From Paenibacillus cymbidii (GTDB taxonomy: Bacteria; Bacillota; Bacilli; Paenibacillales; NBRC-103111), in assembly GCF_004764705.1 (NCBI RefSeq), contig NZ_SHLX01000014.1:90953-154952 (forward strand): a stretch of DNA of 64,000 nucleotides, in the 5' to 3' direction. The translations under genes and the position numbers were made by a program. The notes under the pieces were generated by a model. That model was not told the origin of the DNA. It made no database searches and saw only the letters and a program-made list of their open reading frames with translations. Shown piece by piece: positions 8,296 to 62,745 of the stretch. How positions within the stretch are numbered: the stretch's first letter is position 1; each line of letters opens with the position of its first letter.

Positions 8296-8350
8296 GAAAA
8301 GGACCTTGTCTTCCGCTACCTTGGAAGACGAGGTCCTTTTTTTTCAACAT
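8296..8350 (+). terminator. Rho-independent terminator after tkt-ppnP
   Basis: AAAGGACCTTGTCTTCC…GGAAGACGAGGTCCTTTTTTTTT. A long GC-rich stem is followed by a T9 run. Confidence 0.8.
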
Positions 8351-8380
8351 GTAAGAATCCGATTGATTGCTCGGCAACGA

Positions 8381-8572
8381 AAATAGCCCATGAAAAATGG
8401 CCTATTTGCTCCTTATCGGGCGGCTCGACGGAAATAGCCAGTGAAAACACTGGTTATTTGTCCTGGATCGCCTTCAAATCGGCATTTCAATCGAAATAAC
8501 CAGTGATTTCGCTGGTTATTTTGAAGGGGGTGCCTGTTTTTGGCGAAATAGGCAAGAAAATAGGGCCTAATT
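8381..8572. repeat. Copy 1 of a ~195-bp four-hairpin intergenic repeat element (in inverted orientation relative to copies 3 and 4)
   Basis: Four palindromic units of type AAATAGCCAGTGAAAACACTGGTTATTT (9-10-bp stems, 8-10-nt loops), separated by 24-, 34- and 24-nt spacers. Stem sequences differ between units but stay complementary (GCCCAT…ATGGGC, GCCAG…CTGGC, ACCAG…CTGGT). Confidence 0.8.
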
Positions 8573-8671
8573 GGCAAGGGGTTAGTTGGCGGAGGGGGAA
8601 TGGCGCGCATGAAGCAACGTGTCTGCTCCATGAGAGGCGTTTCTGCCTCATAGGCCGGTCCAACGGGATTT

Positions 8672-9667
8672 TCATGCAAAGCGAGATGCCGGCTGGTCGC
8701 TCCAATCGAACAAGACGAATGGCTCCTTGATTTCCCGGGCCGCCAGGCTGCCGTATGCTTGCTGCGCCTGGTCCGGCAAACAACGATGCGACAGGGAACT
8801 GACGTCCGGCAGCCGCTCTCCAAGCAAGCGCAGCCCTCGGCGCATATGATCGAAAATGCCGCGGGGAGAGAAAACGTCCGCGTGCAGCGGGATCGACCAC
8901 TCCCAGCCGCTGCGCAGCACGGCGTAGCGGTGAAACACCAGCGACAGCAGTTCCTGCGCGGTTGCATCGGTATATCGCTTCCAAGGGACTCCGCACAGGA
9001 CGACCTCCCCATGGCGACGAACGATGCGGCAACCGTCCAGCGCAGCCGCTTCATGGCCGGAGCATTCCAGGACGAGCGCCGTTTGCCCGTCCCATGCCGG
9101 GTCGCCTGCGGGGAACGCCGGCCAAACCCGTTCCGCTCCCATCGCCGCGGCAAATCCCCTGCGTCGTTCATCCGGTTCGCATACCCCGACTTCGTATCCG
9201 CATTGCCGGAACAGCCAGGAAGCGAGCAACCCAACAGGCCCCGCACCGCTGATAATGACCCGCTCGGTCGGTTTGGCCGCAGTCGTTGCCAAGGCGGTCA
9301 GTCCGATATTCATCAACCTGACGAGTACCGCTTGCTCGGGCGCGATTCCCTCCGGAACGGGGATGACGTCCTTCGCGGGGACATGCTGGAAGCTCTGGTG
9401 ACGCCCCATGCAGAACAGAAGATCGCCCGGCTTGATGCCGGATACGTCTTCTCCGATTTGCTCGACCGCGAACACCGCCGCGTACCCCGGGAAATACTCC
9501 TTCTCGTGGCTGTGCAAATAGCCATGGTTCAACTCCGTTCCCGGGCTGATCAGCGTGCAAATCGTCCGGCCGAGCACATGCCCGGAAGCTGCTGCGGATG
9601 GTGCGGGCAGCGGCAGCAGATCGGCTTTTTCTTTTCCTGTGAAACAAACGGCAAATCCCATCGCCAT
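8672..9667 (-). CDS. Zinc-dependent alcohol dehydrogenase of the MDR superfamily
   Basis: GroES-like plus Rossmann fold (…ISGAGPVGLLASWL…). The start was placed at MAMGFAV, which has an AAGGAGGA RBS. Substrate unknown. Confidence 0.7.
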   Translation of the reverse strand: MAMGFAVCFTGKEKADLLPLPAPSAAASGHVLGRTICTLISPGTELNHGYLHSHEKEYFPGYAAVFAVEQIGEDVSGIKPGDLLFCMGRHQSFQHVPAKDVIPVPEGIAPEQAVLVRLMNIGLTALATTAAKPTERVIISGAGPVGLLASWLFRQCGYEVGVCEPDERRRGFAAAMGAERVWPAFPAGDPAWDGQTALVLECSGHEAAALDGCRIVRRHGEVVLCGVPWKRYTDATAQELLSLVFHRYAVLRSGWEWSIPLHADVFSPRGIFDHMRRGLRLLGERLPDVSSLSHRCLPDQAQQAYGSLAAREIKEPFVLFDWSDQPASRFA

Positions 9668-9791
9668 GCTTTCCTCCTTATGTTCGCGTGATTGATATGC
9701 TAGGATTAGCATAACGATTTTCTCGAACAATCGTTAGGTCTTGCAATGCCGACTTTTTATCTGAAAGTATTCAAACAGGAGGGGGAGCGGA

Positions 9792-10649
9792 ATGGAGGAC
9801 AAGCTGCGTCTGCCCGACCGGGCGTTGCAGATCCAGTTGCTGGAGGTTGGCAGCGGGACGGGGCTGCACAACTGGCTGCACGAAAAAACCGTTCCGTACA
9901 CGATAATCGCCCAGGCCGTTACGGGCTCTTATGAAGTGAATTCGCCCGGCGGCAGCACGCGGGTGACGGGGGACGAGGCGTTTTTGGCCGCGGCCGATAC
10001 CCCGCTTGCGATCCGGCACCTCGCGGAGCCGGGAGCCCCGCGGATGACGTTCCGTTATCTTCATGTCCAGTTTTACTTGTATGAAGCGATCGACGTGTTT
10101 TCGTTGTTTGCGCTGCCGCCGAAAACCGATGCCGCCGTCGGCGCCTGGCTCGCCGAATGGATCGGCGAGCTGGTCCGGCTGGCGGCCGAACCGCCGGGCA
10201 TTCCGGTCCTGACCGAGCGCAAGGCGATCGCTTACCGGATCCTGTCGACGCTTCTGGCGATCAGTTCGCCGGCTCCCGGGTCCAAGCTGCTGCTGCACGG
10301 CGACAACGAGCTGCTGACGCCTATCGCCGCCTTCATCCGCGAGCGAATGGCGGGACCGCTTGCCATCGCGGATATGCTCGAGCGGTTCCCGATTTCCCGC
10401 ACGGCGTTGTTTAAGCTGTTCCATCGCTATTTTGCGCTGACGCCGATGGAGTACTGGAAGACAGTGCGGCTGCATGAAGCATATCGCCGCATCTGCGCTA
10501 CTTCCGACACGTTCTCGTCGATTGCCGAGCGGTACGGCTTTGCCAACCTGCAGCATTTCAGCAGGGAATACAAACGCCAATTCCAGCAAACGCCCGGCGA
10601 AACGCGGAAAAAGAACCGGTTGTGGCTGAGCGGCGGCGAGGAGAGTTGA
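9792..10649 (+). CDS. AraC/XylS-family transcriptional regulator
   Basis: C-terminal double helix-turn-helix (…ISRTALFKLFHRYFALTPMEYWKTVRLHEAYRRI…YGFANLQHFSREYKRQFQQTP). It is divergent from the MDR dehydrogenase. Confidence 0.8.
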   Translation: MEDKLRLPDRALQIQLLEVGSGTGLHNWLHEKTVPYTIIAQAVTGSYEVNSPGGSTRVTGDEAFLAAADTPLAIRHLAEPGAPRMTFRYLHVQFYLYEAIDVFSLFALPPKTDAAVGAWLAEWIGELVRLAAEPPGIPVLTERKAIAYRILSTLLAISSPAPGSKLLLHGDNELLTPIAAFIRERMAGPLAIADMLERFPISRTALFKLFHRYFALTPMEYWKTVRLHEAYRRICATSDTFSSIAERYGFANLQHFSREYKRQFQQTPGETRKKNRLWLSGGEES

Positions 10650-10670
10650 GCGTACGGCGTGAGTTTGGAT

Positions 10671-10770
10671 ATAGGCCATGTTTTCTTGGCTATTTCGTTA
10701 AAAATGGGAGGTCGCAACGAAATAGCCAGTGAAATCGCTGGCTATTACGCGTTAAAGTCCGATTTTGGGG
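10671..10770. repeat. Copy 2 (partial, 2 hairpins) of the four-hairpin repeat element
   Basis: ATAGGCCATGTTTTCTTGGCTATTT, then a 24-nt spacer, then AAATAGCCAGTGAAATCGCTGGCTATTA, then the conserved spacer motif CCGATTTTGGGGTGGTCAG. It lies between the 3' ends of araC and the MFS gene. Confidence 0.7.
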
Positions 10771-10773
10771 TGG

Positions 10774-12219
10774 TCAGCCCGCCGTTTCCGCATGCAGCGG
10801 AGCGGAGGCGGCGGACGGGTTGGCTGCCGTACCCGGCGCCGGCTTGCGTCCGGCGCCGCGGACGAACAGCAGCACGCCGATCAGCGCCAGGGCGATCATC
10901 GCCGAGCCGGCGAACAGCGACGGCACGATATGGTCGCCGAAGTCGGCGGGAGTACGGACGGCGGCGCCGGATTGGAAGATGAGGCCGCCGATGGCGATGC
11001 CGAACACGCCGCCCAGCTCGCGGGTCGCGTTGCTGACGCCGCTCGCTTCGCCGGAAGCGCCGTCCGGCGCGGACGAGAGGATGCCGTGCGACAGCGGCGT
11101 GAAGCTCAGGCCCATGCCGGCGCCCGCGGCCATCATCATCGGCGCCTGGTAGCCGAAGGGGAAGTCGACGCCGACGGTCAGGATGAGCACGGCGAAACCG
11201 GCGATGGCGACCGCTTGCAGCAGCAGGCCGGCCGACAGCACGGAGCGCGTGCCGAAGCGCGAGACGGCGAGCCCGGCCAGCGGAGCGGCGATCATCGTGC
11301 AGCCGGTCCACGCCATCTCGCGAATGCCGGCGCCAAGCGCGGAATAACCTTGCGCCTGCTGCAGGAACAGCGTCAACAGGAAGATGGCGCAGAAGATGCC
11401 CGCATTCATCCAGAAGCCGGTAAGCACCAGCGCGGAATATTGGCGGTTGCGGAACAGATCGAAGCGGATGAGCGGCAAACGGCGCGCCCGCTCCCATACA
11501 TAGAACAACACGAGCAACGCAGCGCCGCCGAGCAGCGAGACGAGCACCGGCGCCGAGCCCCAGCCTTCGGCGTTGCCGCGCTCGAGGCCGAAGACGAGGC
11601 CGAATAGTCCGCCGGCGACCAGCAGCACGCTGGAGATGCGGATTGGCCGTCGTTCGCCGCGCGATTCGTCGAGCCATTTCAGACCGAGCAGGAAGGCAAT
11701 AACGCCAACGGGAACGTTCACCCAAAAAATAAGCTGCCACGGCGCGCCTTCGACGATCATGCCGCCGACCAGCGGGCCGACCGACAAGCCGAGGCCGGAT
11801 ATGCCGGACCAGATGCCGAGCGCGGCGGCGCGTTTGTCAGCAGGGAACGCCGCGTTGACAAGCGTCAGGCTGAGCGGCACAACGGCGGCGCCGCCAATAC
11901 CTTGCAGCGCACGCGAGAGGATGAGCGCGATCGAACTCGTGCTTAAACCCGACAGCGCGGAGCCGAGGGTGAAAAGCACGACGCCGGCGAGAAACATCCG
12001 CTTGCGGCCGATCCGTTCGCCAAGCAGGCTGAACGGGATAAGCAAGACGGAGAAAGCGAGCGTGTAAGCGTTCATGAACCATTCGAGATCGGACATCGTC
12101 GCGTGGAACGATTGCTGGATCGCCGGCAGGGCGACGCCGAGCACAAGGTTGTCGAGCATGGCCATGAACAGGGCGGCGCAAGTAACGACAAGCAGCCGGA
12201 CGCGGGAAGCGGTGAACAT
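10774..12219 (-). CDS. MFS transporter, DHA2 (EmrB/QacA, 14-TMS) drug:H+ antiporter family
   Basis: 481 aa and 14 predicted TM helices, with the MFS signature (…LDNLVLGVALPAI…). It lies downstream of a tetR gene. Confidence 0.85.
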   Translation of the reverse strand: MFTASRVRLLVVTCAALFMAMLDNLVLGVALPAIQQSFHATMSDLEWFMNAYTLAFSVLLIPFSLLGERIGRKRMFLAGVVLFTLGSALSGLSTSSIALILSRALQGIGGAAVVPLSLTLVNAAFPADKRAAALGIWSGISGLGLSVGPLVGGMIVEGAPWQLIFWVNVPVGVIAFLLGLKWLDESRGERRPIRISSVLLVAGGLFGLVFGLERGNAEGWGSAPVLVSLLGGAALLVLFYVWERARRLPLIRFDLFRNRQYSALVLTGFWMNAGIFCAIFLLTLFLQQAQGYSALGAGIREMAWTGCTMIAAPLAGLAVSRFGTRSVLSAGLLLQAVAIAGFAVLILTVGVDFPFGYQAPMMMAAGAGMGLSFTPLSHGILSSAPDGASGEASGVSNATRELGGVFGIAIGGLIFQSGAAVRTPADFGDHIVPSLFAGSAMIALALIGVLLFVRGAGRKPAPGTAANPSAASAPLHAETAG

Positions 12220-19859: not shown

Positions 19860-20750
19860 TCAACTTGCCGGTCGGGTCAAATTGCGGTAGGTAATGGTTC
19901 TGCTGGAGCCGCATAGCCGAGCGATCGACTCGAACGGGTTCGACTGGCGCAGATGGCTGCCGATCATGAAACAAAATTCATTCAAATAAGCCTGCAAATG
20001 GCGGCGGCCCAGTCCGCGAAAGGTCAAGTTGATCCAGGAGACGGCCATTTTGTGGTAGGGAAGGGCGCGCTTCTCGGTTCTGTGTGTGTATTTGCCAACG
20101 GTACAAAAAAAGGTGGCATCCGGTTGTACATGCCGTTCCTTGAACCAGGTCACGCTTGTTCTGTCGATTCCGGTTGGGGAGAGCCATTCCTTCGGAACGA
20201 TTTTGATTTTCACGGCATGAGCGTGTTCGAATTCGGGTGAGGTGGTGGCGACGAAAACAGGCACTTCCCGCGGATGCAAAAATAATCCCGATAAATCCGG
20301 ACGGGCGTAAGAAGCTTTATCGACATGAACGAAACCGCAAAGCTGGGTTTCGGCATCTTGCAAACCGATGGCATATCGAATTTTGTGCAGCATCAACCAT
20401 GCCGTCTTGTAGGTGACCTTAATTGCCTTGGATAAAAACATGGCGCTCGTTCCAGGCGAAGGCCTTGTCATGTAGTGCAAGGCGACGAACCATTTGCAAA
20501 GCGGGGTGCGGCTTCCCTCCATCACGGTGCCGCTGGTCGGCGATGCCTGGTAGTGGCAGGAGGTGCACTGAAACAACGGCATTCGCCGGGAGGCAATCCG
20601 GTAGCAGCTGGTGTGGCCGCATCGCGGACAAAGGAATCCGTTCGGCCATTTGCAACAGATCAGATGTTCGATACAGCTCTCTTCCGTGCCAAATTCCTCG
20701 TTCATTTGCTCCAGCGATTGTGGCATTTGAAACATAACAACACCCCCCAC
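19860..20750 (-). mobile_element. IS1595-family insertion sequence; the transposase ORF has an N-terminal zinc ribbon and a DDE domain
   Basis: 296-aa ORF with a CxxC…CxxC zinc ribbon (FLCPRCGHTSCYRIASRRMPLFQCTSCHY) followed by a DDE_Tnp_IS1595-like region. It is inserted in a 1.7-kb intergenic gap. The terminal inverted repeats could not be delimited confidently. Confidence 0.7.
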
Positions 20751-20871: not shown

Positions 20872-21060
20872 GAAGGCTGTGAAACAGGCAACGGAATGGG
20901 AGAGTGAAGCAGGTAACGGAATGGGGAGTGGGGAATGGAGCAGGTAACGGAATGAGCAGTAAGGCAGGCGACGGAATGGGGAGTAAGGCAGGCAACGGAA
21001 TGGGAGAGTGAGGCAGGCAGCGGAACGGGGAGTGAGGCAGGAGACGGAGTGGGTAGTGGG
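20872..21060. repeat. 24-bp minisatellite, ~8 tandem copies of (A/G)AGGCAGG(C/T)AACGGAATGGGGAGT
   Basis: The direct tandem repeats are visible in the sequence. They lie immediately upstream of the IS1595 transposase start. Only repeat-derived low-complexity ORFs cover them. Confidence 0.8.
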
Positions 21061-21177
21061 GGTCGTCATTTCAAAGGGGGGAACAAGCATGCATTCACCT
21101 GATCGAAGGGGATAGTGGCTGAAAAGAGGCTGAGGGCGACAAGTCCCTTGCATGATCGCATAAATATTCCATAAAAA

Positions 21178-37565: not shown

Positions 37566-37660
37566 CAGCGATTGCCGGAAGCGGTGGACCATACATAACG
37601 AAAGAAGGAAGGGAATCCGGCGGGGTTCCTTTTTTTGACGGCTCCAGCCGGGCCCGCTAT

Positions 37661-37853
37661 GAAATAAGCCATGTTTCATTGGCTATTTGTCTCAAAATGG
37701 CGGGGTGCAGCAAAATAACCAGTGAAAACGCTGGCTATTTCGCTGAAATGTTCGATTCCGGGGCGATTTGGTCAGAATAGCCAGTGTTTTTGCTGGCTAT
37801 TTTTATCGCGGTGGGGGAAAACGTGCGAATAGGCCATTTTTTATGGGCTATTT
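37661..37853. repeat. Copy 3 of the four-hairpin repeat element
   Basis: Four units: AAATAAGCCATGTTTCATTGGCTATTT, AAAATAACCAGTGAAAACGCTGGCTATTT, AATAGCCAGTGTTTTTGCTGGCTATTT and AATAGGCCATTTTTTATGGGCTATTT. Spacers are 24, 35 and 25 nt. Confidence 0.8.
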
Positions 37854-37937
37854 TGGCGGCGGGAGACGGCCAGAGGCGTGTTTTGGCCTGTGACGGTCGC
37901 TATTCGGGACAATTGGGCGGAAAAGGAAGTGTCAACT

Positions 37938-38729: not shown

Positions 38730-38856
38730 CGGCAATTCGGTTGTTTTTTCGGCACTTGGCGTAAAATATAAAGAGAAGATGATGCAAAAGGCGATAGATT
38801 GAAAAGTAATAACGTGTTAAACTATAGAGATCACGGGAGGGAAGGAAGTGTTCGGC

Positions 38857-39009
38857 ATGTCGAAGCAGGAGTTGGACGCTTACCTGGAGGAACTTCGTCG
38901 ATTCGAACGTGAAATTCTCAGCTCGGAAGACAAGGCCAATGCATTGCTTGTTTGTGCAGGAATACTTGACGAAGAGGGCAATCTTGCTCCACAATACGCC
39001 GGAGAGTGA
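38857..39009 (+). CDS. Small acidic helical protein (50 aa; 53 aa if the GTG at 38848 is used); candidate partner or antitoxin of the downstream gene
   Basis: This ORF is below the track cutoff and was found by reading the sequence. RBS is GGGAGGGAAGGAAG. Translation: MSKQELDAYLEELRRFEREILSSEDKANALLVCAGILDEEGNLAPQYAGE. Its stop lies 7 bp before the next ORF's start, inside a ~45 % GC islet. Confidence 0.4.
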   Translation: MSKQELDAYLEELRRFEREILSSEDKANALLVCAGILDEEGNLAPQYAGE

Positions 39010-39015
39010 AGTCGG

Positions 39016-39618
39016 TTGTATGCGAATCTTCCCAGCTTTGTTTTAGGGTTTCATGGTTGCGACAAATCGGTTGCAGACAAAATTTTGCAGCACGAAGATA
39101 AATTATTGAAGAGTGAAAATAGTTATGACTGGTTGGGGCATGGTGTTTATTTTTGGGAGGACGATCCATATCGGGCTTTGCATTTTGCGGAATATTTGAG
39201 GGATCGTCCCGACCGCGGCAAAAAAGGTTTGCCTCCGATCAAGGAACCGGCTGTCATTGGAGCCGTATTGGATTTGGGACATTGTTTGAATGCGATTGAG
39301 GCGGCATCGTTGGAGATTATAAAGGCCCATTACCACTTTCTGATCGCAACGTTGGAAAAGGAGCAAAAACCGATCCCGGTCAATCGCAGAGGCAGAGATA
39401 CGAACGATCTGTTGGTCAGGGATCTGGATTGCGCTGTAATCCAATTCATTCATGCCGCGAACGAAAGTCTGACTAAACCGGCCTACGACAGTGTACGCGG
39501 CATGTTTATCGAAGGCGATGAGCTATACCCGGGGGCTGGATTTCACGATAAGAACCATATCCAGATCTGCATTCGAAATGAAGCGTGCATCAAAGGTTAC
39601 TTTTTACCTTTCTTATGA
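39016..39618 (+). CDS. Hypothetical 200-aa protein; its motif pattern recalls the DUF3990 family as I remember it (it may have an ADP-ribosyltransferase-like fold). Candidate toxin or defence effector.
   Basis: N-terminal FHGCD, then DWLGHGVYFWEDDPYRALHFAEY, and a C-terminal IQICIRNEACIKGY. There is no signal peptide or TM helix. The gene lies in the low-GC islet and is tightly coupled to the small ORF before it. The family assignment comes from memory and is not verified. Confidence 0.5.
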   Translation: MYANLPSFVLGFHGCDKSVADKILQHEDKLLKSENSYDWLGHGVYFWEDDPYRALHFAEYLRDRPDRGKKGLPPIKEPAVIGAVLDLGHCLNAIEAASLEIIKAHYHFLIATLEKEQKPIPVNRRGRDTNDLLVRDLDCAVIQFIHAANESLTKPAYDSVRGMFIEGDELYPGAGFHDKNHIQICIRNEACIKGYFLPFL

Positions 39619-39633
39619 GAGGCGGTTCGCCAG

Positions 39634-49554: not shown

Positions 49555-49589
49555 CGGACAAACCAATCATTCTCCTTTCCCAATGCACC

Positions 49590-50110
49590 TGCCCCCTTAT
49601 GAGCCTGCTTCTTTTGTCAGGTATCCCCTTGACTCAGACCTGAACGGAATATCTTCTTTGGACAGCCCCTTCTGCTCGCTATCCCCTTCGCTCCGTTGGA
49701 ACGGGGTTGTCCTCTCCGGAACTTCCTTTCTGCCCGCTATCCCCTTCGCTCAGACTGGAACCGGGCTGTCCTTTCCGGAACTTCCTTTCTGCCTGCTATC
49801 CCCTTGACTCAACCCCACGCATCAATAACTTTTATCCCATTTCAAGAAATGTACCCCCTACGATGCAGTGACACCATTCAGGTACCCCCCTTCAAACTTG
49901 ATACATCCAAACGTTAACCTGAGCCAAGGGGATAACCAGCAAACACAGCCTTCCATTGACCACCGCCGGCTCGCTCCCTCCTCTTCCCATACACTCACTG
50001 CCGAACCTGCCTGAGCCAATGGGATAACCAACAGTCGCGAACTGCTACTGAGTATACGCGCGCTCGCCGCCGCGCCGGCCTGAGTCAATGGGATAACAAG
50101 CAAATACGTA
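49590..50110. repeat. Non-coding region holding convergent arrays of a 16-18-bp motif (G[CG]TATCCCCTT[CG][AG]CTCAG). There are four direct copies on the + strand at a 57-58-bp period, then three inverted copies.
   Basis: + copies at 49622, 49679, 49737 and 49795 (GGTATCCCCTTGACTCAG / GCTATCCCCTTCGCTCAG). - copies at 49919, 50009 and 50079 (CTGAGCCAAGGGGATAACC…). A further single copy is at 19656-19673. No credible ORF covers the region. Confidence 0.75.
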
Positions 50111-50380
50111 CTTGAGACAGCCACTTTAGCATGGCTTGGCATGTCGGCAAACGAAGGCTGATTTCAGCCTTACAGCAGCATTTTGGTGAGTAGCGGACGA
50201 CATATGACCGATTTCAGCCTTACTGCGGCGCTTCGGGAAGCGTCGGACGTCGAACGTGTTTTTAGGCGGCGGTTAAGTGTGTTTTGCGGTTAAGCTACGA
50301 TCTGCCCCGCAGAGGCACCAGTTTGTCGCCATATTTAGCCATGTTAGCGGCGGATGCCGGGTCAATTCGACGTGACGCTG

Positions 50381-50573
50381 GAATAAGCCATGTTTTATTG
50401 GCTATTTCGCCAAAAAGAAGGACTGCCAACGAAATAGCCAGCGATTTCACTGGCTATTTGGCCGCGGAGCCTGATTTTGGCGCAAGTTGACCCAAATAAC
50501 CAGCGTTTTCACTGGTTATTTCCGGCGGACCGCCGAAAAATGGGCGAATAAGCCATTTTTCATGGCCTATTTC
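50381..50573. repeat. Copy 4 of the four-hairpin repeat element
   Basis: Four units: AATAAGCCATGTTTTATTGGCTATTT, AAATAGCCAGCGATTTCACTGGCTATTT, AAATAACCAGCGTTTTCACTGGTTATTT and AATAAGCCATTTTTCATGGCCTATTT. Spacers are 24, 34 and 25 nt. Confidence 0.8.
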
Positions 50574-50726
50574 TGCGGCGTGGTGCGTGGGGGGCGTGTT
50601 TGTTGAAGAATACGACCAGAAATTAAAGGTTTGCCTTCTACAAGCCCGGACGGCGGCGCCGTTATAATGGCACTATCACGCCGAACCTCCACACCAGTAA
50701 CCAACAACCGAAAGGAGCGCGACAAC

Positions 50727-54296: not shown

Positions 54297-54517
54297 TATT
54301 TTGGCGAAACAGCGCGGAGGGACCGGAAGAATTGACGAACCGGACCGGATTCTTTATAGTGTATGATTATATAGAATAAATAAAAATTACATGTAATCCG
54401 CCGCAGGTGCAGTTAAAGCCGGCAACGATTGCCACAAGGATGTAAACGCTTGCAATCAAGGTGCCGCCACTCTCGTCATCGGCGAAACATCGCCGTGTTT
54501 CGTGCATTTCGAAACGT

Positions 54518-54570
54518 TTTCGTGGTTATTGAAATAGTCAATCGTTCGGAGGAAGAGGTATAGTAAAGCC
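54518..54570 (+). promoter_or_regulatory. Conserved ~45-bp upstream element (copy A): TTTCGAAACGTTTTCGTGGTTATTGAAATAGTCAATCG, then 24 nt, then TATAGTAAAG
   Basis: It matches 62688-62745 almost base-for-base. A reduced version (AGTCAA-N17-TATAGTAAG) lies upstream of the SBP gene at 52620-52650. Confidence 0.6.
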
Positions 54571-54687: not shown

Positions 54688-57600
54688 ATGAAACGATGGA
54701 AAAGCAAGCTGGCCGGGCTTCTGGTTTGCATCTTGTTTGCGGGGGTTATCAATGTTTCTTTGATTACGCCGGCAAGTGCGGATAATTCGGATACGGCGGT
54801 ACTGTTTCAAGACGGATTCGAGAACGGGTTCTCGAATTGGACGACACTTGCCGGAACGCCGGCGACGAGCAAGGTGCGCGCCCACAACGGACGCAACAGC
54901 TTCGCCGTCAGTCAGAATCAGCAAGCGATTCAATACAGCCTCGGCAGCAATTCGAATCAAGTGGCCGCGGTTTGGTTTTACGACGACGCGAGCGATTCGG
55001 ACATGGCGGTGATGGCGTTTGCCGACCGCAATGTATCGGTCGTCGGCATCGGGGTCAATACGACGGTCAGCGTGACGAACTACGTGTACCGGATCGGCGC
55101 CAACACGTACGTGTCGACCGCCGCGAGAACGACCGGCTGGCACAGCCTGTCGTACGATTACCGCTCCGGCAGCAAGGCGGTGCTGTACGTGGACGGCGAG
55201 AAGATCGCCGAAACGACGGCGGAAACGTCGTTCAACCGGATCGGGCTGGGCGATTTCTGGGCCGACGGGAAAACGGGAACTGTGTACTATGACGATGTTT
55301 TCGTGCAGAAGCGCCTGCCGTGGGATCCGGAGACAGTCGACCATCCGACGCCGCTGGCTCCGCTGCTGCAGGCGAGCCAGCCGGGCGGCATCACCATCAG
55401 GGACGACTTCGAGAACGGCCTCGGACGCTGGTCCGTCTTGTACGGCGCTCCCGCAACGAGCACGGCTCAAAAACACGGCGGCGCCTCCAGTTATGCCGTC
55501 GCGCAAGACCAGAGCGCCATTCGCTACGATATTGCCAAAACGAATAAAGTCGTCGTCGCCTGGTTCTACGACGATACGTCGAAACCGTCGACGCAAGTGA
55601 TGGCTTATGCCGACGCGTACAGCTCGGCGCTCGCGCTCATCGGCATCGGCGTTCACAGTGCCGCAAGCGTCACGAAATACGTTTACCGGATCGGCACCGA
55701 CGAATCGGTTTCCGCCGTATCGCGGAGCACCGGCTGGCACAGCCTCTCGTTCGATTATCGGTCGGGAACCGGCGTGACCTTGTATATCGACGGCACCCAA
55801 ATTGCCGCCTCGACGGCCGAGGTTGCCGTGAGCCGGATTTCGCTAGGCGATTTCTGGCCGGACGGGAACACGAGCGGCGCCTATTTCGACGACGTCGCCG
55901 TACAGGACTATTTGCCGTGGGAAACGCCGACCGCCCCTGCCGGCATCACATTCATGGACGGCTTCGACAACGGCTTCACCGCCTGGACGACCCAGTTGGG
56001 AACTCCCGCCGCCAGCGCGGATCGGTCGCACGACGGCCGCAACAGCTTCGTTCTGAACCAGAACCAGGTGGCCATCCAGCACAACATGGGATCGAGCTTG
56101 CGCAAGGTCGTCTCCGTCTGGTTGTTTGACGATGCGGCCAACGCCAATTCGACGGCATATGCCTACGTCGACAATTCGTCCGCTGCTGTGGGGCTTGGCG
56201 TCAATACGTCAGTCAGCGGAACGTATTATGTTTCCGCCATCGGCGCAACCGCGGCAACGACCTCCGTCAAGCGCAGCTCCGGCTGGCACCAGCTCGTGTT
56301 CGACTACCGGTCGACGGGCGGCGTCGTGCTGTACATCGACGGGGAGCAAGTCGGCACCACCGCTTCGGTCAATGCATTCAATCGCATCGCGCTGGGCGAT
56401 TATTGGTCGGGCACGACCAGCAACGTCTATTTCGACGACGTCAGCGTCAAGGACGGCCTGCCCTGGGATACGGCAATCGCGCCGTTCGTCGACGGCTTCG
56501 ACGGCGGGCTCGCCTACTGGGCCTCTGCAGCCGGTCATGCGGACACGACGACCATGCGCGCCCATAACGGCAACTTCAGCTATGTGCTGAACGAAGATAC
56601 GGATGCCGTGCAGCATAACATGGGCTACAAAGTGAACAAAGTCGCCGTCGTCTGGATGTACGACGATGCCGAGAAGGATGCGCTGCATGCGGAAGCGCTC
56701 GTCGATCGCGGCGTCACGGCGATCGGTCTCGGCGTCGATACGGGCGTCAGCGCCGCCAACTATGTGTACCATATCGGCGGCACAACCGTCGCTTCCTCCG
56801 TACCACGCAAGACGGGGTGGCACAGCCTCGCCTTCGATTATACGTCCGGAACCGGCGTTACGCTGTACATCGACGGCAAACAAGTCGCCGCTTCGTCTTC
56901 GGAAACCGTGTTCAACCGCATCGCGTTCGGCGATTTCTGGAGCGACGGGGTAACCGGCTATATCGAATTCGACGATGTCGCCGTGCAGGACACCGTTCCT
57001 GCTCCGCCCGGACAGCCGCTGTTCCGCGAAAGCTTCGAATCGGGGCTGACGAACTGGATCGTGCAATCCGGGACGCCGACGCTCGGCACGGCGCAGGCGC
57101 ATGACGGGCAGAAGAGCTTCGCGCTCGATCAGGACGTCGTGATGATCCAGCACAACATGGGCATCTCCGCCAACAAGGTGGCCGTCGTCTGGTTCTACGA
57201 TACGGCCAACAATTCGGCCGTGCAGTCGTACGCCTTCGTCGACAACGGCTCGTCGCTGGTTGCGCTGGGCGCGGTCAGCGCCACAAGCGCGACCCACTAT
57301 ATTTACCGGATCGGCAGCACGCAGAGCGTTTCTTCGGTGCCGCGAACGCCGGGCTGGCACAGCTTCGTCTTCGATTACCGCTCCGGCCGCGACGTAACGC
57401 TGTATATCGACGGCCGCACCGTAACGACGACGACAACGTCGGCATCGTTTACGCGGATCGGGCTTGGCGATTACGGACTCGGCGTCACTTCGAACGGCAT
57501 GTACTTCGACGATGTGACGGTGCAGGACCAGCTTCCGGTCATTCACAGCTTCGACGACGGCTTCGAAGCCGGCTTTGCCAACTGGACGGCAGCGTACGGC

Positions 57601-60465
57601 ACGCCTTCGGCAAGCTCGTCGCAGAAGCACGCGGGCAATAACGCCTACGCGGTGAACGAAGATGTCGACGCGATTACCCGCACCGTCGCCGGCACGAACG
57701 GCGCGGCGACGTTCTGGTTCTACGACACGGCCGCGCCGACGCTGCAGGCGATGGCGTTCGCCGACGGCGCTACCATTGTCGGGCTTGGGGTAAGCACGCC
57801 GGTCAATGCGGCGAAATACGTGTACCGGATCGGTGCGACCACGACCGCAACGACGCTTGATCGTACGGCCGGCTGGCACAGCCTGACGTTCGATTATCGC
57901 AGCGGTACCGGCGTCACCCTGTCCATTGACGGCCATCAGGTGGCGACGACAACGGCGATAACGGCGTTCACCCGACTGGCTATGGGCGACTTTTGGCCGG
58001 ACGGTTCGACCGCCAACGTTTTCTTCGACGATGTCAGCATCGGCCAGTTTACGCCGTGGGAGTCGGATCCGGCGTTTGTTGCGCCGCCGCACTTCACCGC
58101 AGCGGACGCGATGGGCTTCGAGGCGGACGGGGCATGGCGCAGCGAGGCGTATATCCTCGAAGACAATCCGAATCTCGTGGAATCCGACTTGTGGGAATCC
58201 CGCACCACCTCGCTGGCAGCATTGTCCGCCGGCGTAGTGGAAACGAACGAGCATGTAGCGGAAGGGGCGCTTTCCGGCAAATGGAGCAATCATCCGTATT
58301 ATCCGACCATTTCGACGCGTTCGATCGAACACGACTGGTCGACGTACAACACGATTTCGTTTGCGGTTTATTCGGAGGTCGCCACCGGGGAAACGATCCA
58401 TCTGCTTGCCTTCTCCGACAATGCGGCTACGTATTGGGAGGAGTTCTACTACTTCCCGTTCACGATCGATTTCACCGGCTGGAAAACGTTCGACATTCCG
58501 TTCGCCGCCTTTACGCCGTACGGCGATCCTGCCGGCTGGAACGACGTTAGCGAGCTCGCTTTTGCAACCAAAGCGTTAAACAAGCAGCCGAGTCCCGACA
58601 CGGTCGTTCATCTCGACGCGATTCATCTGCGCAGCGAAACGGCGACGACGCTGGACACGCTGCTGGCCGGGCTTGCCGCTTCTTCGCCGCAGCCGGTCAA
58701 CTACATGACGAAATATCCGGCCGGCTTCAAGGCGGTGTCGCTGGAGGACTACCTGCTGTACGTGAACAACAAGATCGAGTACGACACGGCAGCATCCGCC
58801 AGACAGCTGGAAATCCGGGCGGAAAATAACGCGATTCTGGCGAAGTACGGCATCGCGGGAACGGACGGCGACTATGCGCTGAACCAGTTCGTCGATGCGC
58901 AGCCGGCGATCGCCACGTCGCACGACGTCATGCCGTTCGACCCGGGCGCGCTCAATCACGGCTTCGCGGAGCTGCACGCCGCGCCGGCCGGAGGCACGGT
59001 CGAATACCAGTCGTATTGGAAAAACGAACGCGCGCTGTACGGCTACAACCCGCAATTCCAGGTGGCGCCGGTATCGGTTGACGTGTACGGCAACAAGTAC
59101 CTGAAATACAGCGATTCGATCATCGAAACGTATCATGCCGGGGCGGACCGCTGGCTCTACCATGACATCGAGCCGGTCTATCGCAAGTACGTCACCGACA
59201 CGCTTGGCTGGTACGGTTACTGGCATCGCGACGACGGCTTCTACAACGATGTCAAAATCCGCTTCGACAACGACGGCGACGCGTATATCTTGTCCACGCT
59301 GCTGGAAGTGAGAGCGAACGGCACTACCGGAGACATCGTCGGGGTGCTGCTGTATTCGCACGACAAGATGAAAACATGGACCGCGTACGCGCTGCCGAAT
59401 CCGTTCTCCAAATTCGAGAACATCGACTCGAACAACGCCGATGCGCTGAATCGGCCGCCCGTCATCACGCTGCACGATTATTGGTATCACGCCAGACAGA
59501 ACAAAAGCGGCTACCTCCTCATCCCGCAGAAGCAGCCGGACGGCACGCTGGTCATTCCGCCGCGCACGAAGTTTTGCGACAGCTGCCTGCAGACGACGGT
59601 TTACCATTCCGGCGACGCCAATATTGCGGTAACGGCAGGAGACAAGGTATACCTGGCTTACAGCGTAAATGAAATCGAACGCAGTCCGGCGATCCCGGCG
59701 AACCATCCGGCGAATACGATGTCGTGGACGTACAACGGCCGTACGTACGAGAGCAAAAACGGCTCTCCCGCGTTCGTCGTCAGCTACGACATCAACACGG
59801 GGCAAGTGTCCGCTCCCGTCTTCATCGGGTATGCCGGCAGCGTTCCGTACGACGACCATGACTGGCCGGCGATCGAAATCGACAGTACCGGACATCTTCA
59901 CGCTTTCATCAACGGCCATCACAATCCGCTCACCCACACGGTAACGAACAGCGCCTACGATATTTCCTCGTGGTCGGTGCCGGAGCTGGTCGGGTTGGCC
60001 AACTCCTACGCGGCGATTACGATGGACGCGGACGATACGATTCATGTCGTTACCCGCGATTCGGCGCGCGGCTATCGGTTCGACCAGTCGTATTTCCGCA
60101 AGAAAGCGGGCCAGCCTTGGGAAGGGCCGGTCAATCTCGTGAAACGGTTCAAGCCGTATTACGAGGTGGCGAACCAGCGGATGTCCATCGATCCGACAAC
60201 GGGCAAATTGTTCGTATCGTATTACGGCCAATCGCGTTCGGTGCAAATTTACAAGGACGAGTATGACGCCTATACGTACATTTGGCCGGATCGGGAGAAG
60301 CTGATGAATCCGCGCAACGTGGCCGGACCGGTCGGCTCCTACAAAACGCCGCGCGGCTCTTACGGCACGATGGCGAGCATTCCCGCGACGGAAATGACGA
60401 TTCTGACGTCCGACGACGGCGGGGATACGTGGCATTTGGCGACGACGCCCGATTTTGCACCATAA
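54688..60465 (+). CDS. Giant secreted protein (1925 aa): signal peptide, 7 tandem ~175-aa LamG-like/concanavalin-type lectin repeats, a CBM-like β-sandwich region, and a C-terminal BNR (Asp-box) domain
   Basis: Signal peptide MKRWKSKLAGLLVCILFAGVINVSLITPASA. Seven repeats each hold D(G)FE(N)GF…W…G…HxG..S…TGWHSL(S/A)FDYRSG…(Y/F)FDDV.VQ. The same periodicity shows at DNA level (ACCGGCTGGCACAGCCT… recurring every ~530 nt). A C-terminal Asp-box SDDGGDTW is present. The gene has its own RBS and a perfect 9-bp hairpin after the stop. Confidence 0.8.
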   Translation: MKRWKSKLAGLLVCILFAGVINVSLITPASADNSDTAVLFQDGFENGFSNWTTLAGTPATSKVRAHNGRNSFAVSQNQQAIQYSLGSNSNQVAAVWFYDDASDSDMAVMAFADRNVSVVGIGVNTTVSVTNYVYRIGANTYVSTAARTTGWHSLSYDYRSGSKAVLYVDGEKIAETTAETSFNRIGLGDFWADGKTGTVYYDDVFVQKRLPWDPETVDHPTPLAPLLQASQPGGITIRDDFENGLGRWSVLYGAPATSTAQKHGGASSYAVAQDQSAIRYDIAKTNKVVVAWFYDDTSKPSTQVMAYADAYSSALALIGIGVHSAASVTKYVYRIGTDESVSAVSRSTGWHSLSFDYRSGTGVTLYIDGTQIAASTAEVAVSRISLGDFWPDGNTSGAYFDDVAVQDYLPWETPTAPAGITFMDGFDNGFTAWTTQLGTPAASADRSHDGRNSFVLNQNQVAIQHNMGSSLRKVVSVWLFDDAANANSTAYAYVDNSSAAVGLGVNTSVSGTYYVSAIGATAATTSVKRSSGWHQLVFDYRSTGGVVLYIDGEQVGTTASVNAFNRIALGDYWSGTTSNVYFDDVSVKDGLPWDTAIAPFVDGFDGGLAYWASAAGHADTTTMRAHNGNFSYVLNEDTDAVQHNMGYKVNKVAVVWMYDDAEKDALHAEALVDRGVTAIGLGVDTGVSAANYVYHIGGTTVASSVPRKTGWHSLAFDYTSGTGVTLYIDGKQVAASSSETVFNRIAFGDFWSDGVTGYIEFDDVAVQDTVPAPPGQPLFRESFESGLTNWIVQSGTPTLGTAQAHDGQKSFALDQDVVMIQHNMGISANKVAVVWFYDTANNSAVQSYAFVDNGSSLVALGAVSATSATHYIYRIGSTQSVSSVPRTPGWHSFVFDYRSGRDVTLYIDGRTVTTTTTSASFTRIGLGDYGLGVTSNGMYFDDVTVQDQLPVIHSFDDGFEAGFANWTAAYGTPSASSSQKHAGNNAYAVNEDVDAITRTVAGTNGAATFWFYDTAAPTLQAMAFADGATIVGLGVSTPVNAAKYVYRIGATTTATTLDRTAGWHSLTFDYRSGTGVTLSIDGHQVATTTAITAFTRLAMGDFWPDGSTANVFFDDVSIGQFTPWESDPAFVAPPHFTAADAMGFEADGAWRSEAYILEDNPNLVESDLWESRTTSLAALSAGVVETNEHVAEGALSGKWSNHPYYPTISTRSIEHDWSTYNTISFAVYSEVATGETIHLLAFSDNAATYWEEFYYFPFTIDFTGWKTFDIPFAAFTPYGDPAGWNDVSELAFATKALNKQPSPDTVVHLDAIHLRSETATTLDTLLAGLAASSPQPVNYMTKYPAGFKAVSLEDYLLYVNNKIEYDTAASARQLEIRAENNAILAKYGIAGTDGDYALNQFVDAQPAIATSHDVMPFDPGALNHGFAELHAAPAGGTVEYQSYWKNERALYGYNPQFQVAPVSVDVYGNKYLKYSDSIIETYHAGADRWLYHDIEPVYRKYVTDTLGWYGYWHRDDGFYNDVKIRFDNDGDAYILSTLLEVRANGTTGDIVGVLLYSHDKMKTWTAYALPNPFSKFENIDSNNADALNRPPVITLHDYWYHARQNKSGYLLIPQKQPDGTLVIPPRTKFCDSCLQTTVYHSGDANIAVTAGDKVYLAYSVNEIERSPAIPANHPANTMSWTYNGRTYESKNGSPAFVVSYDINTGQVSAPVFIGYAGSVPYDDHDWPAIEIDSTGHLHAFINGHHNPLTHTVTNSAYDISSWSVPELVGLANSYAAITMDADDTIHVVTRDSARGYRFDQSYFRKKAGQPWEGPVNLVKRFKPYYEVANQRMSIDPTTGKLFVSYYGQSRSVQIYKDEYDAYTYIWPDREKLMNPRNVAGPVGSYKTPRGSYGTMASIPATEMTILTSDDGGDTWHLATTPDFAP

Positions 60466-60525: not shown

Positions 60526-62661
60526 ATGATCATCGCCCGGGAGTGGAGAAACCGTTACTTTATTCGTTTGGCGCTTTCATACGGCATGTTGGCCGTCCTG
60601 CTGATCGGCGCTGCAGGCGGCTATTTGTTCAACCGCGCGAATCGGGTCATGATCGACGAAATGTTCAAGGACAGCCAGCACAATTTGAACAATATCAAGG
60701 ATTACGTGGAAAATACGTTTCTGCAGCGATACGAAGATACGTTCATGAGCAAGGTGATGACGACCGTCAACCGGGACAGTCTCGATGAACTGCAATACCT
60801 GCTTGAACACGATACGGAAAAAGACGCCTACCGCATTACGCGTTTCATATATGACATGGGTGCGATCGCTTCCGCGAACGACGGCATGTCCGGCATTACC
60901 GTGCTGCTGAAAAAAGCGAATTACGTGATCGACGAGCAATATTATTATCACACCCCCGCCAACTCGCCGGATTACGATTTTATCCGCACGCTGGACGAAA
61001 CGGCGCCCAATCGCTGGACGAAACGGACCAAAGGCTCTACGGGCAAAGAAGTGCTGACTTATGTGTATTCGCTTCCCTACAAATCGATCAATAAATACGC
61101 CCTCGGGTATTTGTATCTGGATATGGATCTTGACTATATGAACAAAATGATCCGCCAGATGACCAGCTCGTCCCAGGAAAGGCTGCTCATTTTCGACAAA
61201 GACGGCAGGCTCGTCTTCCAGAATCAGCCCGGCAGCGACAGCTCGCAACGACTGGTGCAGGACATCGTCCGCGAAAACCGCTCCGAGCCGTTCGTGACCA
61301 AGGACACGAAGGAAGGCAGCATCGTCGCCTATTTGCCCAATCGCGATTCACGCAACGAATGGAGCTACGTGCTCGTCAAGCCGGTGAATTCGTTCCTGCT
61401 GACGACGGATCAATTCAAGAACGACATTCTGCGCGGCTGCCTGATCGTGCTTGTTGCCGGCCTGTTGTCGTCGTTGTTCATCTCGAACCGGTTTTCTTTG
61501 CCGCTGAAGCGGCTGGTGCTGCGCATGGGCGAACAAACCCGCAGCAGCAACGTGGTGCATCTGCTCAACGGGAACGTCGGCGATATCGACGACATTACAA
61601 GCTTGCCGACGCAGTGCCAATACGTAGCCGTTTATGTAAAAGGCGCCGCGGGCGTCCGGGAACGGTTCACGAACGAATTCGCCGGACCGTCCCGCGCGGC
61701 GGGTTGCGATACCGTAAGCGTCAACGCGCAATCCACGGCGATTTTGTTCTACCGCGACAGCGCGGAGGAGGAGCCGGTGCGGGCCGTCAGGAAAGAAATG
61801 GAGCGCTGGTTGTTCGAAACGGCCGGCGACCGGCAAATCGTCGTTGGCATCGGGCACGCGGCGCAAACCCCGGAAGAGGTGCACCGGTCGTGGGTGAACG
61901 CCGCATATGCCAGCAAGTACAGCTTCATCTTCGGCTGCCCCGCCGTCGTCGCATACGACGATGTAAAGGAGCGCAGGCCGCAGCATGTGCCGTTCCCGTT
62001 CGAGCCGTTCTCGAACGCGCTGCTCGCCGGCGATTGGCGGGCCGCCCTGCCGATGATCGACAAATTTGCCGAGGAGCTGGCCGTCGCCGACATGTCGCTG
62101 GAATCGTTCGAAGTCAACATCATGCAATTCGTCATGTCGTTGTCCGGGTTTATTATCGACCACGGTCTGCAAGCCGAGTTTCCGAGCTCCGCGTTGTTCG
62201 CGGACGTCAAGAAACCCACCTTCGCCGAAACCGTGCAGCGGATGAAGGAAATTTGCCTGCCGGTAGCCACCTTGTTCGCACAGCGGGCTACCAACGGGCA
62301 TACGCGGATGATCCATGAGTTGAAAGCTTATGTGGACAGCCATATGGAGGAGGACCTGTCGCTGGATTCGCTGGCGGCCAAGGCGGGGCTTACGCCCAAT
62401 TATGTGTCCTTGCTGTTCAGGGAAGTGCTGCACACATCCGTGGTCGACTACATCAACAAGGTACGGCTGGAAAAAGCGGCGCAGCTGCTCCAGGAGACGA
62501 GAGCGACGGTGGCGGATATCGCGGCGCAGTCGGGGTACCGCAACGTCCCGTATTTCTGCACCAAATTCAAGGCGAAGTACGGCATTACGCCGATCCAGTA
62601 CCGGCAAGCGGCCGGCGGAGGAAAGTACATTCCCGCGGAATCGTCCGCGGCGGGGGAATGA
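60526..62661 (+). CDS. Membrane-anchored AraC-family regulator with an extracytoplasmic (Cache-like) sensor domain
   Basis: N-terminal TM helix (FIRLALSYGMLAVLLIGAAGGYLF), a ~270-aa periplasmic domain, a second TM helix, and a cytoplasmic domain ending in an AraC HTH pair (…YFCTKFKAKYGITPIQYRQ). RBS is GAGGAGGAAG. Confidence 0.8.
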   Translation: MIIAREWRNRYFIRLALSYGMLAVLLIGAAGGYLFNRANRVMIDEMFKDSQHNLNNIKDYVENTFLQRYEDTFMSKVMTTVNRDSLDELQYLLEHDTEKDAYRITRFIYDMGAIASANDGMSGITVLLKKANYVIDEQYYYHTPANSPDYDFIRTLDETAPNRWTKRTKGSTGKEVLTYVYSLPYKSINKYALGYLYLDMDLDYMNKMIRQMTSSSQERLLIFDKDGRLVFQNQPGSDSSQRLVQDIVRENRSEPFVTKDTKEGSIVAYLPNRDSRNEWSYVLVKPVNSFLLTTDQFKNDILRGCLIVLVAGLLSSLFISNRFSLPLKRLVLRMGEQTRSSNVVHLLNGNVGDIDDITSLPTQCQYVAVYVKGAAGVRERFTNEFAGPSRAAGCDTVSVNAQSTAILFYRDSAEEEPVRAVRKEMERWLFETAGDRQIVVGIGHAAQTPEEVHRSWVNAAYASKYSFIFGCPAVVAYDDVKERRPQHVPFPFEPFSNALLAGDWRAALPMIDKFAEELAVADMSLESFEVNIMQFVMSLSGFIIDHGLQAEFPSSALFADVKKPTFAETVQRMKEICLPVATLFAQRATNGHTRMIHELKAYVDSHMEEDLSLDSLAAKAGLTPNYVSLLFREVLHTSVVDYINKVRLEKAAQLLQETRATVADIAAQSGYRNVPYFCTKFKAKYGITPIQYRQAAGGGKYIPAESSAAGE

Positions 62662-62687
62662 TCGTTTTTTTCCGCCAATTGTGGCTT

Positions 62688-62745
62688 TTCGAAGCATTTT
62701 CGAGGTATTTGAAATAGTCAATCGCACGGGCGTTACGTTATAGTA
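62688..62745 (+). promoter_or_regulatory. Conserved ~45-bp upstream element (copy B): TTTCGAAGCATTTTCGAGGTATTTGAAATAGTCAATCG, then 24 nt, then TATAGTAGG
   Basis: See copy A. It lies ~90 bp upstream of the SBP start at 62823. Confidence 0.6.

Follow-up and report, generated by a model that had tools for sequence, protein, structure and literature searches.

A previously unnamed REP/BIME/BOX kind of intergenic repeat with four palindromic units in Paenibacillus cymbidii

Introduction

Dispersed palindromic repeats have been well studied in Proteobacteria, where they are described as REP, BIME and REPIN sequences, and in streptococci, where BOX and RUP elements are found, but little work has been devoted to them in Paenibacillus. 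In the REP systems of Enterobacteria and Pseudomonas the REPINs are mobilised by RAYT Y1 transposases. The window analysed here, the whole stretch of 64 kb of Paenibacillus cymbidii DNA, contains three full copies of about 193 bp each and one half copy of a repeat which can be set beside these systems. It is built from two palindromic unit types of 25-26 nt, an outer (O) and an inner (I) one, in the layout O-L, 25 nt, I1, 36 nt, I2, 26 nt, O-R.

With REP and BIME sequences the element shares short imperfect palindromes of about 26 nt which are restricted to extragenic DNA, the mosaic arrangement of two unit types joined by linkers of fixed length where the units are conserved and the linkers drift, and the location mostly past the 3' ends of genes. 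Both are also polymorphic between close relatives, with insertions that lack clean target-site duplications. The element differs from REP and BIME in having no 5' tetranucleotide of the GTAG type, as its units start with AATA or AAATA within the palindrome, in units which are AT-rich instead of GC-rich (35% GC, compared to 55-60% in the spacers and 59% in the window and the genome), and in its Firmicute host. From REPINs it is distinguished by a fixed block of four units with polarity in place of an inverted doublet, and a long hairpin formed by I1 and I2 is unsupported.

The BOX element of Streptococcus pneumoniae, boxA-(boxB)n-boxC, resembles the present repeat in its Gram-positive host and its modular A-B-B-C layout with distinct terminal modules and a repeated internal module. 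Like BOX the repeat is about 200 bp long, intergenic and rich in hairpins, has no coding potential, and comes with no known dedicated transposase. There is, however, no sequence similarity between the two, the modules here are single 26-nt palindromes with strictly fixed spacing, and all three full copies have the same number of inner units. MITEs and PATEs, which are miniature versions of DDE or IS200/IS605 elements, are likewise shorter than 300 bp, non-coding and multicopy, their presence varies between relatives, and the half copy in the window resembles a truncated element of this sort. Their inverted terminal units have a counterpart in O-L and O-R, which are alike in this orientation only because each is itself a palindrome. 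MITEs and PATEs are unlike the present element in that it carries four internal or terminal palindromes instead of simple terminal inverted repeats. A CRISPR array differs from the element, which has two or three unit types and spacers that are homologous between loci (48-56% identity).

The family thus works most like REP/BIME mosaics, in a modular layout like that of pneumococcal BOX, and is a member of neither. The first-pass annotation of this DNA had proposed a REP/BIME- or MITE-like family of dispersed structured intergenic repeats matching no named element, and both the category and the lack of a name were confirmed. Comparison with Rfam yielded no family match, with nothing at the gathering score and only miRNA-type noise at E<=10. 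No match was obtained by blastn against 72,556 plasmids and 50,697 phage records, and none came from two scans of metagenomes, one with a pattern of two inner units and the other with a pattern of an outer and an inner unit. A viral scan gave only single chance palindromes, and the same was found in unrelated low-GC taxa among the matches listed from a scan of a genome collection with the inner-unit pattern. In the literature on REP, MITE or intergenic repeats of Paenibacillus no named equivalent was found. The element is therefore a real, previously unnamed intergenic repeat of the REP/BIME/BOX kind rather than a new kind of system.

Copies and Architecture

A covariance model (CM) was built from all copies and run over the 64 kb with filters off. 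It retrieved only the four copies, and nhmmer as well as mismatch-tolerant regular expression scans concurred that the window holds no further ones. The places which had been proposed for the four copies were borne out by pattern, model and alignment, with limits of 10669-10769 for copy 2. Copy 1 (8381-8572) is a full element which scores 200.6 bits on the minus strand, so the earlier view that it is inverted relative to copies 3 and 4 was correct. On the plus strand its units read O-R 8381-8407, I2 8433-8458, I1 8495-8520, and O-L 8546-8572. Copy 2 (10669-10769, plus strand, 114.8 bits) is indeed a truncation with two hairpins: it consists of the left half only, with O-L at 10670-10695, I1 at 10721-10746, and part of the central spacer. 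Copy 3 (37661-37853, plus strand, 213 bits) is complete, with O-L 37662-37688, I1 37714-37739, I2 37776-37801, and O-R 37828-37852. Equally complete is copy 4 (50381-50573, plus strand, 214.8 bits), where O-L occupies 50382-50407, I1 50433-50458, I2 50495-50520, and O-R 50547-50572.

Altogether 14 units lie at the four intergenic sites. The pattern AATARCCAGYG-N4-YRCTGGYTATT, which describes the inner unit, occurs at 7 sites (14 strand matches) and was not encountered in 100 shuffled sequences. Scores of the full copies with the covariance model amount to 201-215 bits in forward and 48-71 bits in reverse orientation, and the element therefore has polarity. Eight full or partial copies can be aligned without one internal gap, which means that all spacer lengths are fixed and the spacing from unit to unit is identical in every copy. 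The first-pass annotation had rightly described spacers of fixed length; the measured lengths are 25, 36, and 26 nt in place of its 24, 34-35, and 25 nt. Its four units per full copy were likewise found, although the outer ones deviate from clean palindromes, with a bulge of one base in O-L and, in 5 of 5 copies, a mismatched pair (179/195 or 180/194) in O-R. A conserved GGTCAG core in the central spacer did not hold up, as this motif is present in copy 3 only and the bases of copy 2 at that position belong to the stop-codon region of the MFS gene (TCA, 10774-10776).

Past O-R of copy 4 a G-rich tail (CTGCGGCGTGGTGCGTGGGGGGCGTG..., 50574-50606, plus strand) can be aligned with the tail of copy 3 at 37854-37888, and also with the spacer of a hairpin array from a more distant Paenibacillus described below. 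The tail may be a fourth spacer of the element.

Presence and Absence in Relatives

The informative relatives fell into three groups: the metagenome-assembled genome (MAG) GCA_017744765.1, which is 96-97% identical to the window at the nucleotide level (loci L010 and L012) and with which the JGI contig L018 can be placed, the Logan assembly of run ERR161173 with about 92% identity, and the more distant relatives L015, L016, L019, and L020. Copy 1 is absent from the MAG (L010) and from L018, which have the same allele. What is missing there is a 325-bp segment (8347-8671), and the ADH stop codon comes straight after the terminator of the Ppnp gene. This segment exceeds the element by 35 and 97 bp on its two sides, and the hexamer TTTTCA is found at both of its junctions (8343-8348 and 8669-8674). 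The MAG lacks the window sequence 8347-10771, including a deleted block of the dehydrogenase gene, the AraC-family gene and copy 2. The deletion in the MAG lineage comprises about 2.08 kb between two TGGTC microhomologies (8698-10775 compared with L010 575-605 and L018 775-812); roughly 25 bp of the dehydrogenase 3' end are retained in the MAG and joined to the MFS stop via TGGTC. Copy 3 lies in a 292-bp segment (37641-37932), the place of which is taken by about 31-35 unrelated bp in the MAG (L012) and in ERR161173 (L014). The change is a substitution and not a clean insertion. Over 31 kb of the MAG which are syntenic with the three-copy part of the window, the covariance model found no unit.

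ERR161173 shares copy 2 (L011 8906-8991) and copy 4 (L017 1-126). It lacks copy 1, the place of which is occupied by a gene of the AP-endonuclease family, as well as copy 3. It has a copy of its own 11 nt past the stop codon of the short-chain dehydrogenase (SDR) gene, in opposite orientation and missing in the window and in the MAG, and a second one past an SBP gene in non-syntenic DNA. All four of the ERR161173 contigs that were fetched end inside an element, which is the signature of a multicopy repeat breaking a short-read assembly; by these contig breaks alone a high genome-wide copy number is implied. No copies were seen in the loci from the distant relatives L015, L016, L019, and L020, where flanking proteins are 82-94% identical. 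Within 3-8% genome divergence copies have been gained, lost or replaced at intergenic sites.

At the spot directly past the SDR gene where ERR161173 has its repeat copy, the window contains instead a 900-bp insertion of lower GC content (38730-39629), which is missing in the MAG. It has a 51-amino-acid and a 200-amino-acid reading frame without Pfam match and is possibly a small two-gene cassette.

The junctions bear on the question whether the copies are what is left of a single longer IS or MITE of a known kind, which would have had terminal inverted repeats and produced target-site duplications. TTTTCA at both junctions of the copy 1 segment could be taken as such a duplication, but a deletion at a microhomology in the relatives would explain it equally well. 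This hexamer is the sole candidate and lies 35 and 97 bp away; a duplication directly adjoining the hairpin block was found at none of the copies, and neither the copy 1 nor the copy 3 site showed a clean insertion signature. The outer units are near-identical when inverted, as terminal inverted repeats would be, but O-L and O-R are alike in this orientation only because each of them is itself a palindrome. A parent IS with the same ends was found neither in the window nor in the fetched loci, the plasmid and phage records contained nothing related, and the covariance model and nhmmer detected no longer homologous element and no unit adjoining the IS1595-type reading frame of the window. An origin from a known IS or MITE is accordingly regarded as very unlikely.

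Stem Conservation and Folding

Base changes in the stems had been interpreted earlier as covariation reflecting selection on structure. For a test of this claim the four-hairpin structure was written out and pairs were counted on the ungapped alignment with 500 shuffles as controls. All measures were at or below the shuffled controls in this sample of 8 sequences, most of them partial, which limits the power of the test. The stem cells were paired to 92.0%, compared to 92.6% in the shuffles, and the covariation score was 0.018 compared to 0.024, with 484 of the 500 shuffles reaching at least the observed value. Invariant pairs made up 29 of 43. The only pair which varies on both sides is position 5/22 of the two inner units, where nine cells comprised four G-C, two A-T and three A.C mismatches, and position 10/17 of the inner units is nearly always T.G or C.A and never a Watson-Crick C-G pair. 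The covariance model, which had been suggested as a check, retrieved in the window only the four copies, and the pair counts brought no support for covariation. With the limited power given by 8 sequences, the stems are conserved as sequence, without compensation beyond that seen in shuffles. Conservation at the sequence level without covariation points to sequence-specific recognition or to homogenisation, and the conserved bulges and mismatches of the outer units are as expected for recognition by a protein. The element is a cautionary case of how palindromic repeats can mimic RNA covariation.

Folded as RNA, the element is far more stable than shuffled sequences (z = -4.8 and -5.7). For copy 3 the fold of minimum free energy is a long REPIN-like hairpin joining I1 with I2, but beyond the shared arms a comparison of the copies gives it no support: I1 and I2 pair in 73.6% of the cells compared to 75.2% in shuffles, and the spacer positions pair at chance level.

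Genomic Setting

The window is chromosomal DNA, and the Ppnp and CheX proteins which it encodes show 100% identity to the P. cymbidii entries. All copies in the window are intergenic, as had been annotated. They are flanked by genes for Ppnp, a zinc-type dehydrogenase, an AraC-family regulator, an MFS transporter, CheX, a short-chain dehydrogenase, a histidine kinase, and a sugar ABC permease, which are ordinary and functionally unrelated. Copy 1 is located just past the canonical intrinsic terminator of the Ppnp gene (8297-8345, plus strand). Copy 3 similarly follows a terminator-like GC hairpin with a T-run behind the CheX gene (37606-37638, plus strand), which was read from the sequence and is not listed by the terminator scan, and which is kept in the MAG and in ERR161173. 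Copy 2 takes up the entire interval between two convergent genes, the AraC-family one with its stop at 10649 and the MFS one with its stop at 10774, and is the only hairpin-bearing sequence between them. Copy 4 is found about 155 bp upstream of the start codon of the ABC permease. No copy in the window lies between divergent genes. Orientation relative to the flanking genes could be judged at four informative loci only, which split 3:1.

Between the histidine kinase gene and copy 4 there is a non-coding stretch of 830 bp (49555-50380) which is full of other repeats. It includes a 59-bp unit repeated 2.3 times (49670-49805), CTGAGYCAAKGGGATAAC three times in forward orientation (around 49921, 50012, and 50080) with its complement several times at 49620-49811, and GATTTCAGCCTTAC twice (around 50160 and 50210). 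The stretch looks like a permissive site where repeats accumulate.

REP sequences in Escherichia coli can terminate transcription or stabilise mRNA. By analogy the hairpins might act as RNA, being transcribed at the ends of upstream genes, where they would terminate transcription weakly in both directions or stabilise the mRNA by blocking 3'-exonucleases, with dispersal being secondary. AAATA and TATTT flank every unit, TATTT forming the tails, and 4 of the 14 units pass the terminator scan, two of these being outer units flagged on one strand only. The stable folds, the constraint on the hairpins at orthologous loci, the lack of copies between divergent genes, and copy 2 as the sole structured sequence between convergent genes, which is kept in ERR161173, all fit such a role. 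On the other hand covariation is lacking, and neither strand stands out as functional, since mispairs of the G.U and A.C types are found on each. With UAUUU the U-tracts are short, an intrinsic terminator having a GC-rich stem and after it a tract of at least 5 U. Copies 1 and 3 are situated beyond the strong canonical terminators of the Ppnp and CheX genes, close relatives do without these two copies, and the copy past the SDR gene in ERR161173 is oppositely oriented. Nor do the exact spacer lengths have an obvious role for independent hairpins. A function as terminator or 3'-end stabiliser is possible, especially for copy 2, and is considered unlikely as the explanation of the family.

Constrained Units and Drifting Spacers

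Comparison of orthologous copies of P. cymbidii and ERR161173 revealed 29 differences in 83 spacer positions and 10 in 109 unit positions (35% and 9%, respectively; Fisher p = 2e-5). In the flanking genes the two differ at 15-26% of third codon positions, and the spacers therefore drift at approximately the neutral rate. Paralogous copies are 85-86% identical in their units and 48-56% in their spacers, without indels. What keeps the palindromes and the spacer lengths constant is either selection or a homogenisation of the copies. From purely selfish DNA one would not expect constraint at orthologous loci, unless the copies are homogenised by gene conversion. A difficulty for dispersal is that the spacers of recently acquired copies are about 50% different, which would require many diverged source copies.

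Another finding was that the asymmetric central 8-mer of the inner unit is present in both orientations (TGAAAACG and CGTTTTCA). In O-R of copy 4 the ERR161173 ortholog shows an arm swap from A.C to G.T with unchanged loop. Together these comparisons suggest inversions of loops and arms within the palindromes, and hence hairpin dynamics at the level of DNA.

A Different Hairpin Array at an Orthologous Site

The JGI metagenome contig L020 from a more distant Paenibacillus, in which the permease is 82% identical, carries at the orthologous site between kinase and permease genes, upstream of the orthologous ABC-transporter promoter, a tandem array of 52 bp repeated 5.4 times (9599-9879). Each unit consists of the hairpin AGCACGG-AAAAA-CCGTGCT and a G-rich spacer. 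The array is like the element in that it repeats about every 52 nt, in its stem of 7-10 bp, its homopolymer loop of 5 nt, and its G-rich spacer, and in the resemblance of the spacer GCGGCGGGTGCG to the tail of copy 4. The last spacer of the array aligns with this tail just upstream of the conserved promoter. It is unlike the element in a wholly different stem sequence (AGCACGG/CCGTGCT) and in having 5.4 near-identical tandem units in contrast to four differentiated ones. The 21 kb of contig examined contain a single such array. When the units of the element and the 52-bp unit were aligned the layout proved similar, whereas sequence homology was not convincing; homology of the two would be a hypothesis drawn from their layout and spacers. 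The array is annotated there as a 67-amino-acid reading frame, which is probably spurious. It can be imagined, and is regarded as improbable, that the element and this array belong to a superfamily of hairpin arrays which is spread across Paenibacillus and shares the 52-nt period, and the species-specific stems of which would co-evolve with a dedicated and possibly domesticated transposase or recombinase. If it were true it would be a Gram-positive counterpart of the REPIN-RAYT partnership, with the four in-phase palindromes as an assembly platform for the enzyme.

The distances between unit centres in the element, 51, 62, and 51.5 bp, correspond to about 5, 6, and 5 helical turns, with the central spacer exactly one helical turn longer. 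Four operators in phase could form an array for a chromosomal DNA-binding protein, be it nucleoid-associated, insulator-like or regulatory, and the element could have spread and been kept because the host uses it. This would agree with the conservation at the sequence level, the invariant spacing, the constraint on units at orthologous loci, and the presence of a different array of 52-bp period at the orthologous site of the same ABC operon in L020 (9599-9879). Use by the host is weakened by the 97% identical relative, which has no copy in 31 kb syntenic with the three-copy part of the window, and it does not sit well with functionally unrelated flanking genes. The centres of the half-sites are about 17-19 bp apart, a spacing which is unusual for helix-turn-helix dimers. 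The only resemblance to an operator that was tested, the one to the cre site of CcpA, was at chance level: three inner units match the consensus WTGNAANCGNWNNCW with one mismatch, and the window has 18 such matches where 25 are expected. This consensus had been taken from the literature (e.g., PMC9598941). An operator array serving the host appears to be a rather doubtful explanation.

A Probable Non-autonomous Dispersed Repeat

The conservation at the sequence level, the conserved asymmetries, the invariant spacing, and the turnover between relatives are the reasons why the element is best explained, with moderate confidence, as a lineage-restricted, non-autonomous dispersed repeat whose palindromes and spacing are recognised by a sequence-specific protein encoded elsewhere. 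The four units would be recognition sites for a transposase or recombinase encoded at another place in the genome, and could be read either as duplex palindromes or as extruded hairpins. Judged from three distances only, the helical phasing would put the four sites on one face of the DNA, which would suit a nucleoprotein complex. The arrays probably also change by local duplication of units and by loop inversion. Secondary effects on neighbouring genes are plausible, for instance a putative transcription termination at copy 2.

The window and the fetched loci revealed no enzyme that would mobilise the element. A Pfam scan of 20 of the about 54 reading frames in the window detected no Y1 transposase, and the only transposase-like gene in the window, an IS1595-type reading frame at 19860-20750, has no visible link to the element.

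The rigid architecture of conserved palindromes, invariant spacing and neutral spacers provides a handle for finding the recognising protein. Should there be a cognate enzyme, the system might reveal how repeats of this kind persist in Firmicutes; otherwise the family is chiefly useful for annotation and strain typing. The family breaks the short-read assembly of one relative and marks sites of replacement of intergenic DNA between close relatives.

Other Repeats and Features

The IS1595-type reading frame encodes 296 amino acids with a zinc-ribbon domain only and is also found in the MAG. Upstream of it lies a tandem repeat of 24/49 bp (GCAGGCAACGGAATGGGGAGTAAG, about 5 copies, 20885-21061). 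In the MAG a 22-bp tandem repeat of 5.3 copies (L010 9558-9673) adjoins the reading frame, and the window sequence is shorter there.

Direct repeats of AATAGTACC... in L019 were considered as relatives of the element and rejected, as they do not fold. Downstream of cheX the same locus (run SRR24490439) has at 1240-1400 three units of about 45 bp, GCGTGAAAAGCGGGACGGTACGCAAAG, an unrelated short intergenic repeat.

The cre consensus of CcpA is matched perfectly by the palindromic sequence ATGTAAACGCTTGCA at 54440-54455 of the window. This site precedes a reading frame of 1925 amino acids by about 240 bp, and judging by the match it is probably a genuine catabolite-repression operator. A 62-nt direct repeat with 76% identity (GCATTTCGAAACGTTTTCG...GAAATAGTCAATCG...TATAGTA) is found at 54504-54565 and 62684-62745. 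Both places are intergenic, the first upstream of the 1925-amino-acid frame, which starts at 54688, and the second past a frame of 722 amino acids ending at 62661; the repeat may be a shared promoter or operator. Within the 1925-amino-acid frame itself (54688-60465) a sequence of about 530-600 bp is repeated six times (55042-57956), which indicates a repetitive secreted or surface protein.
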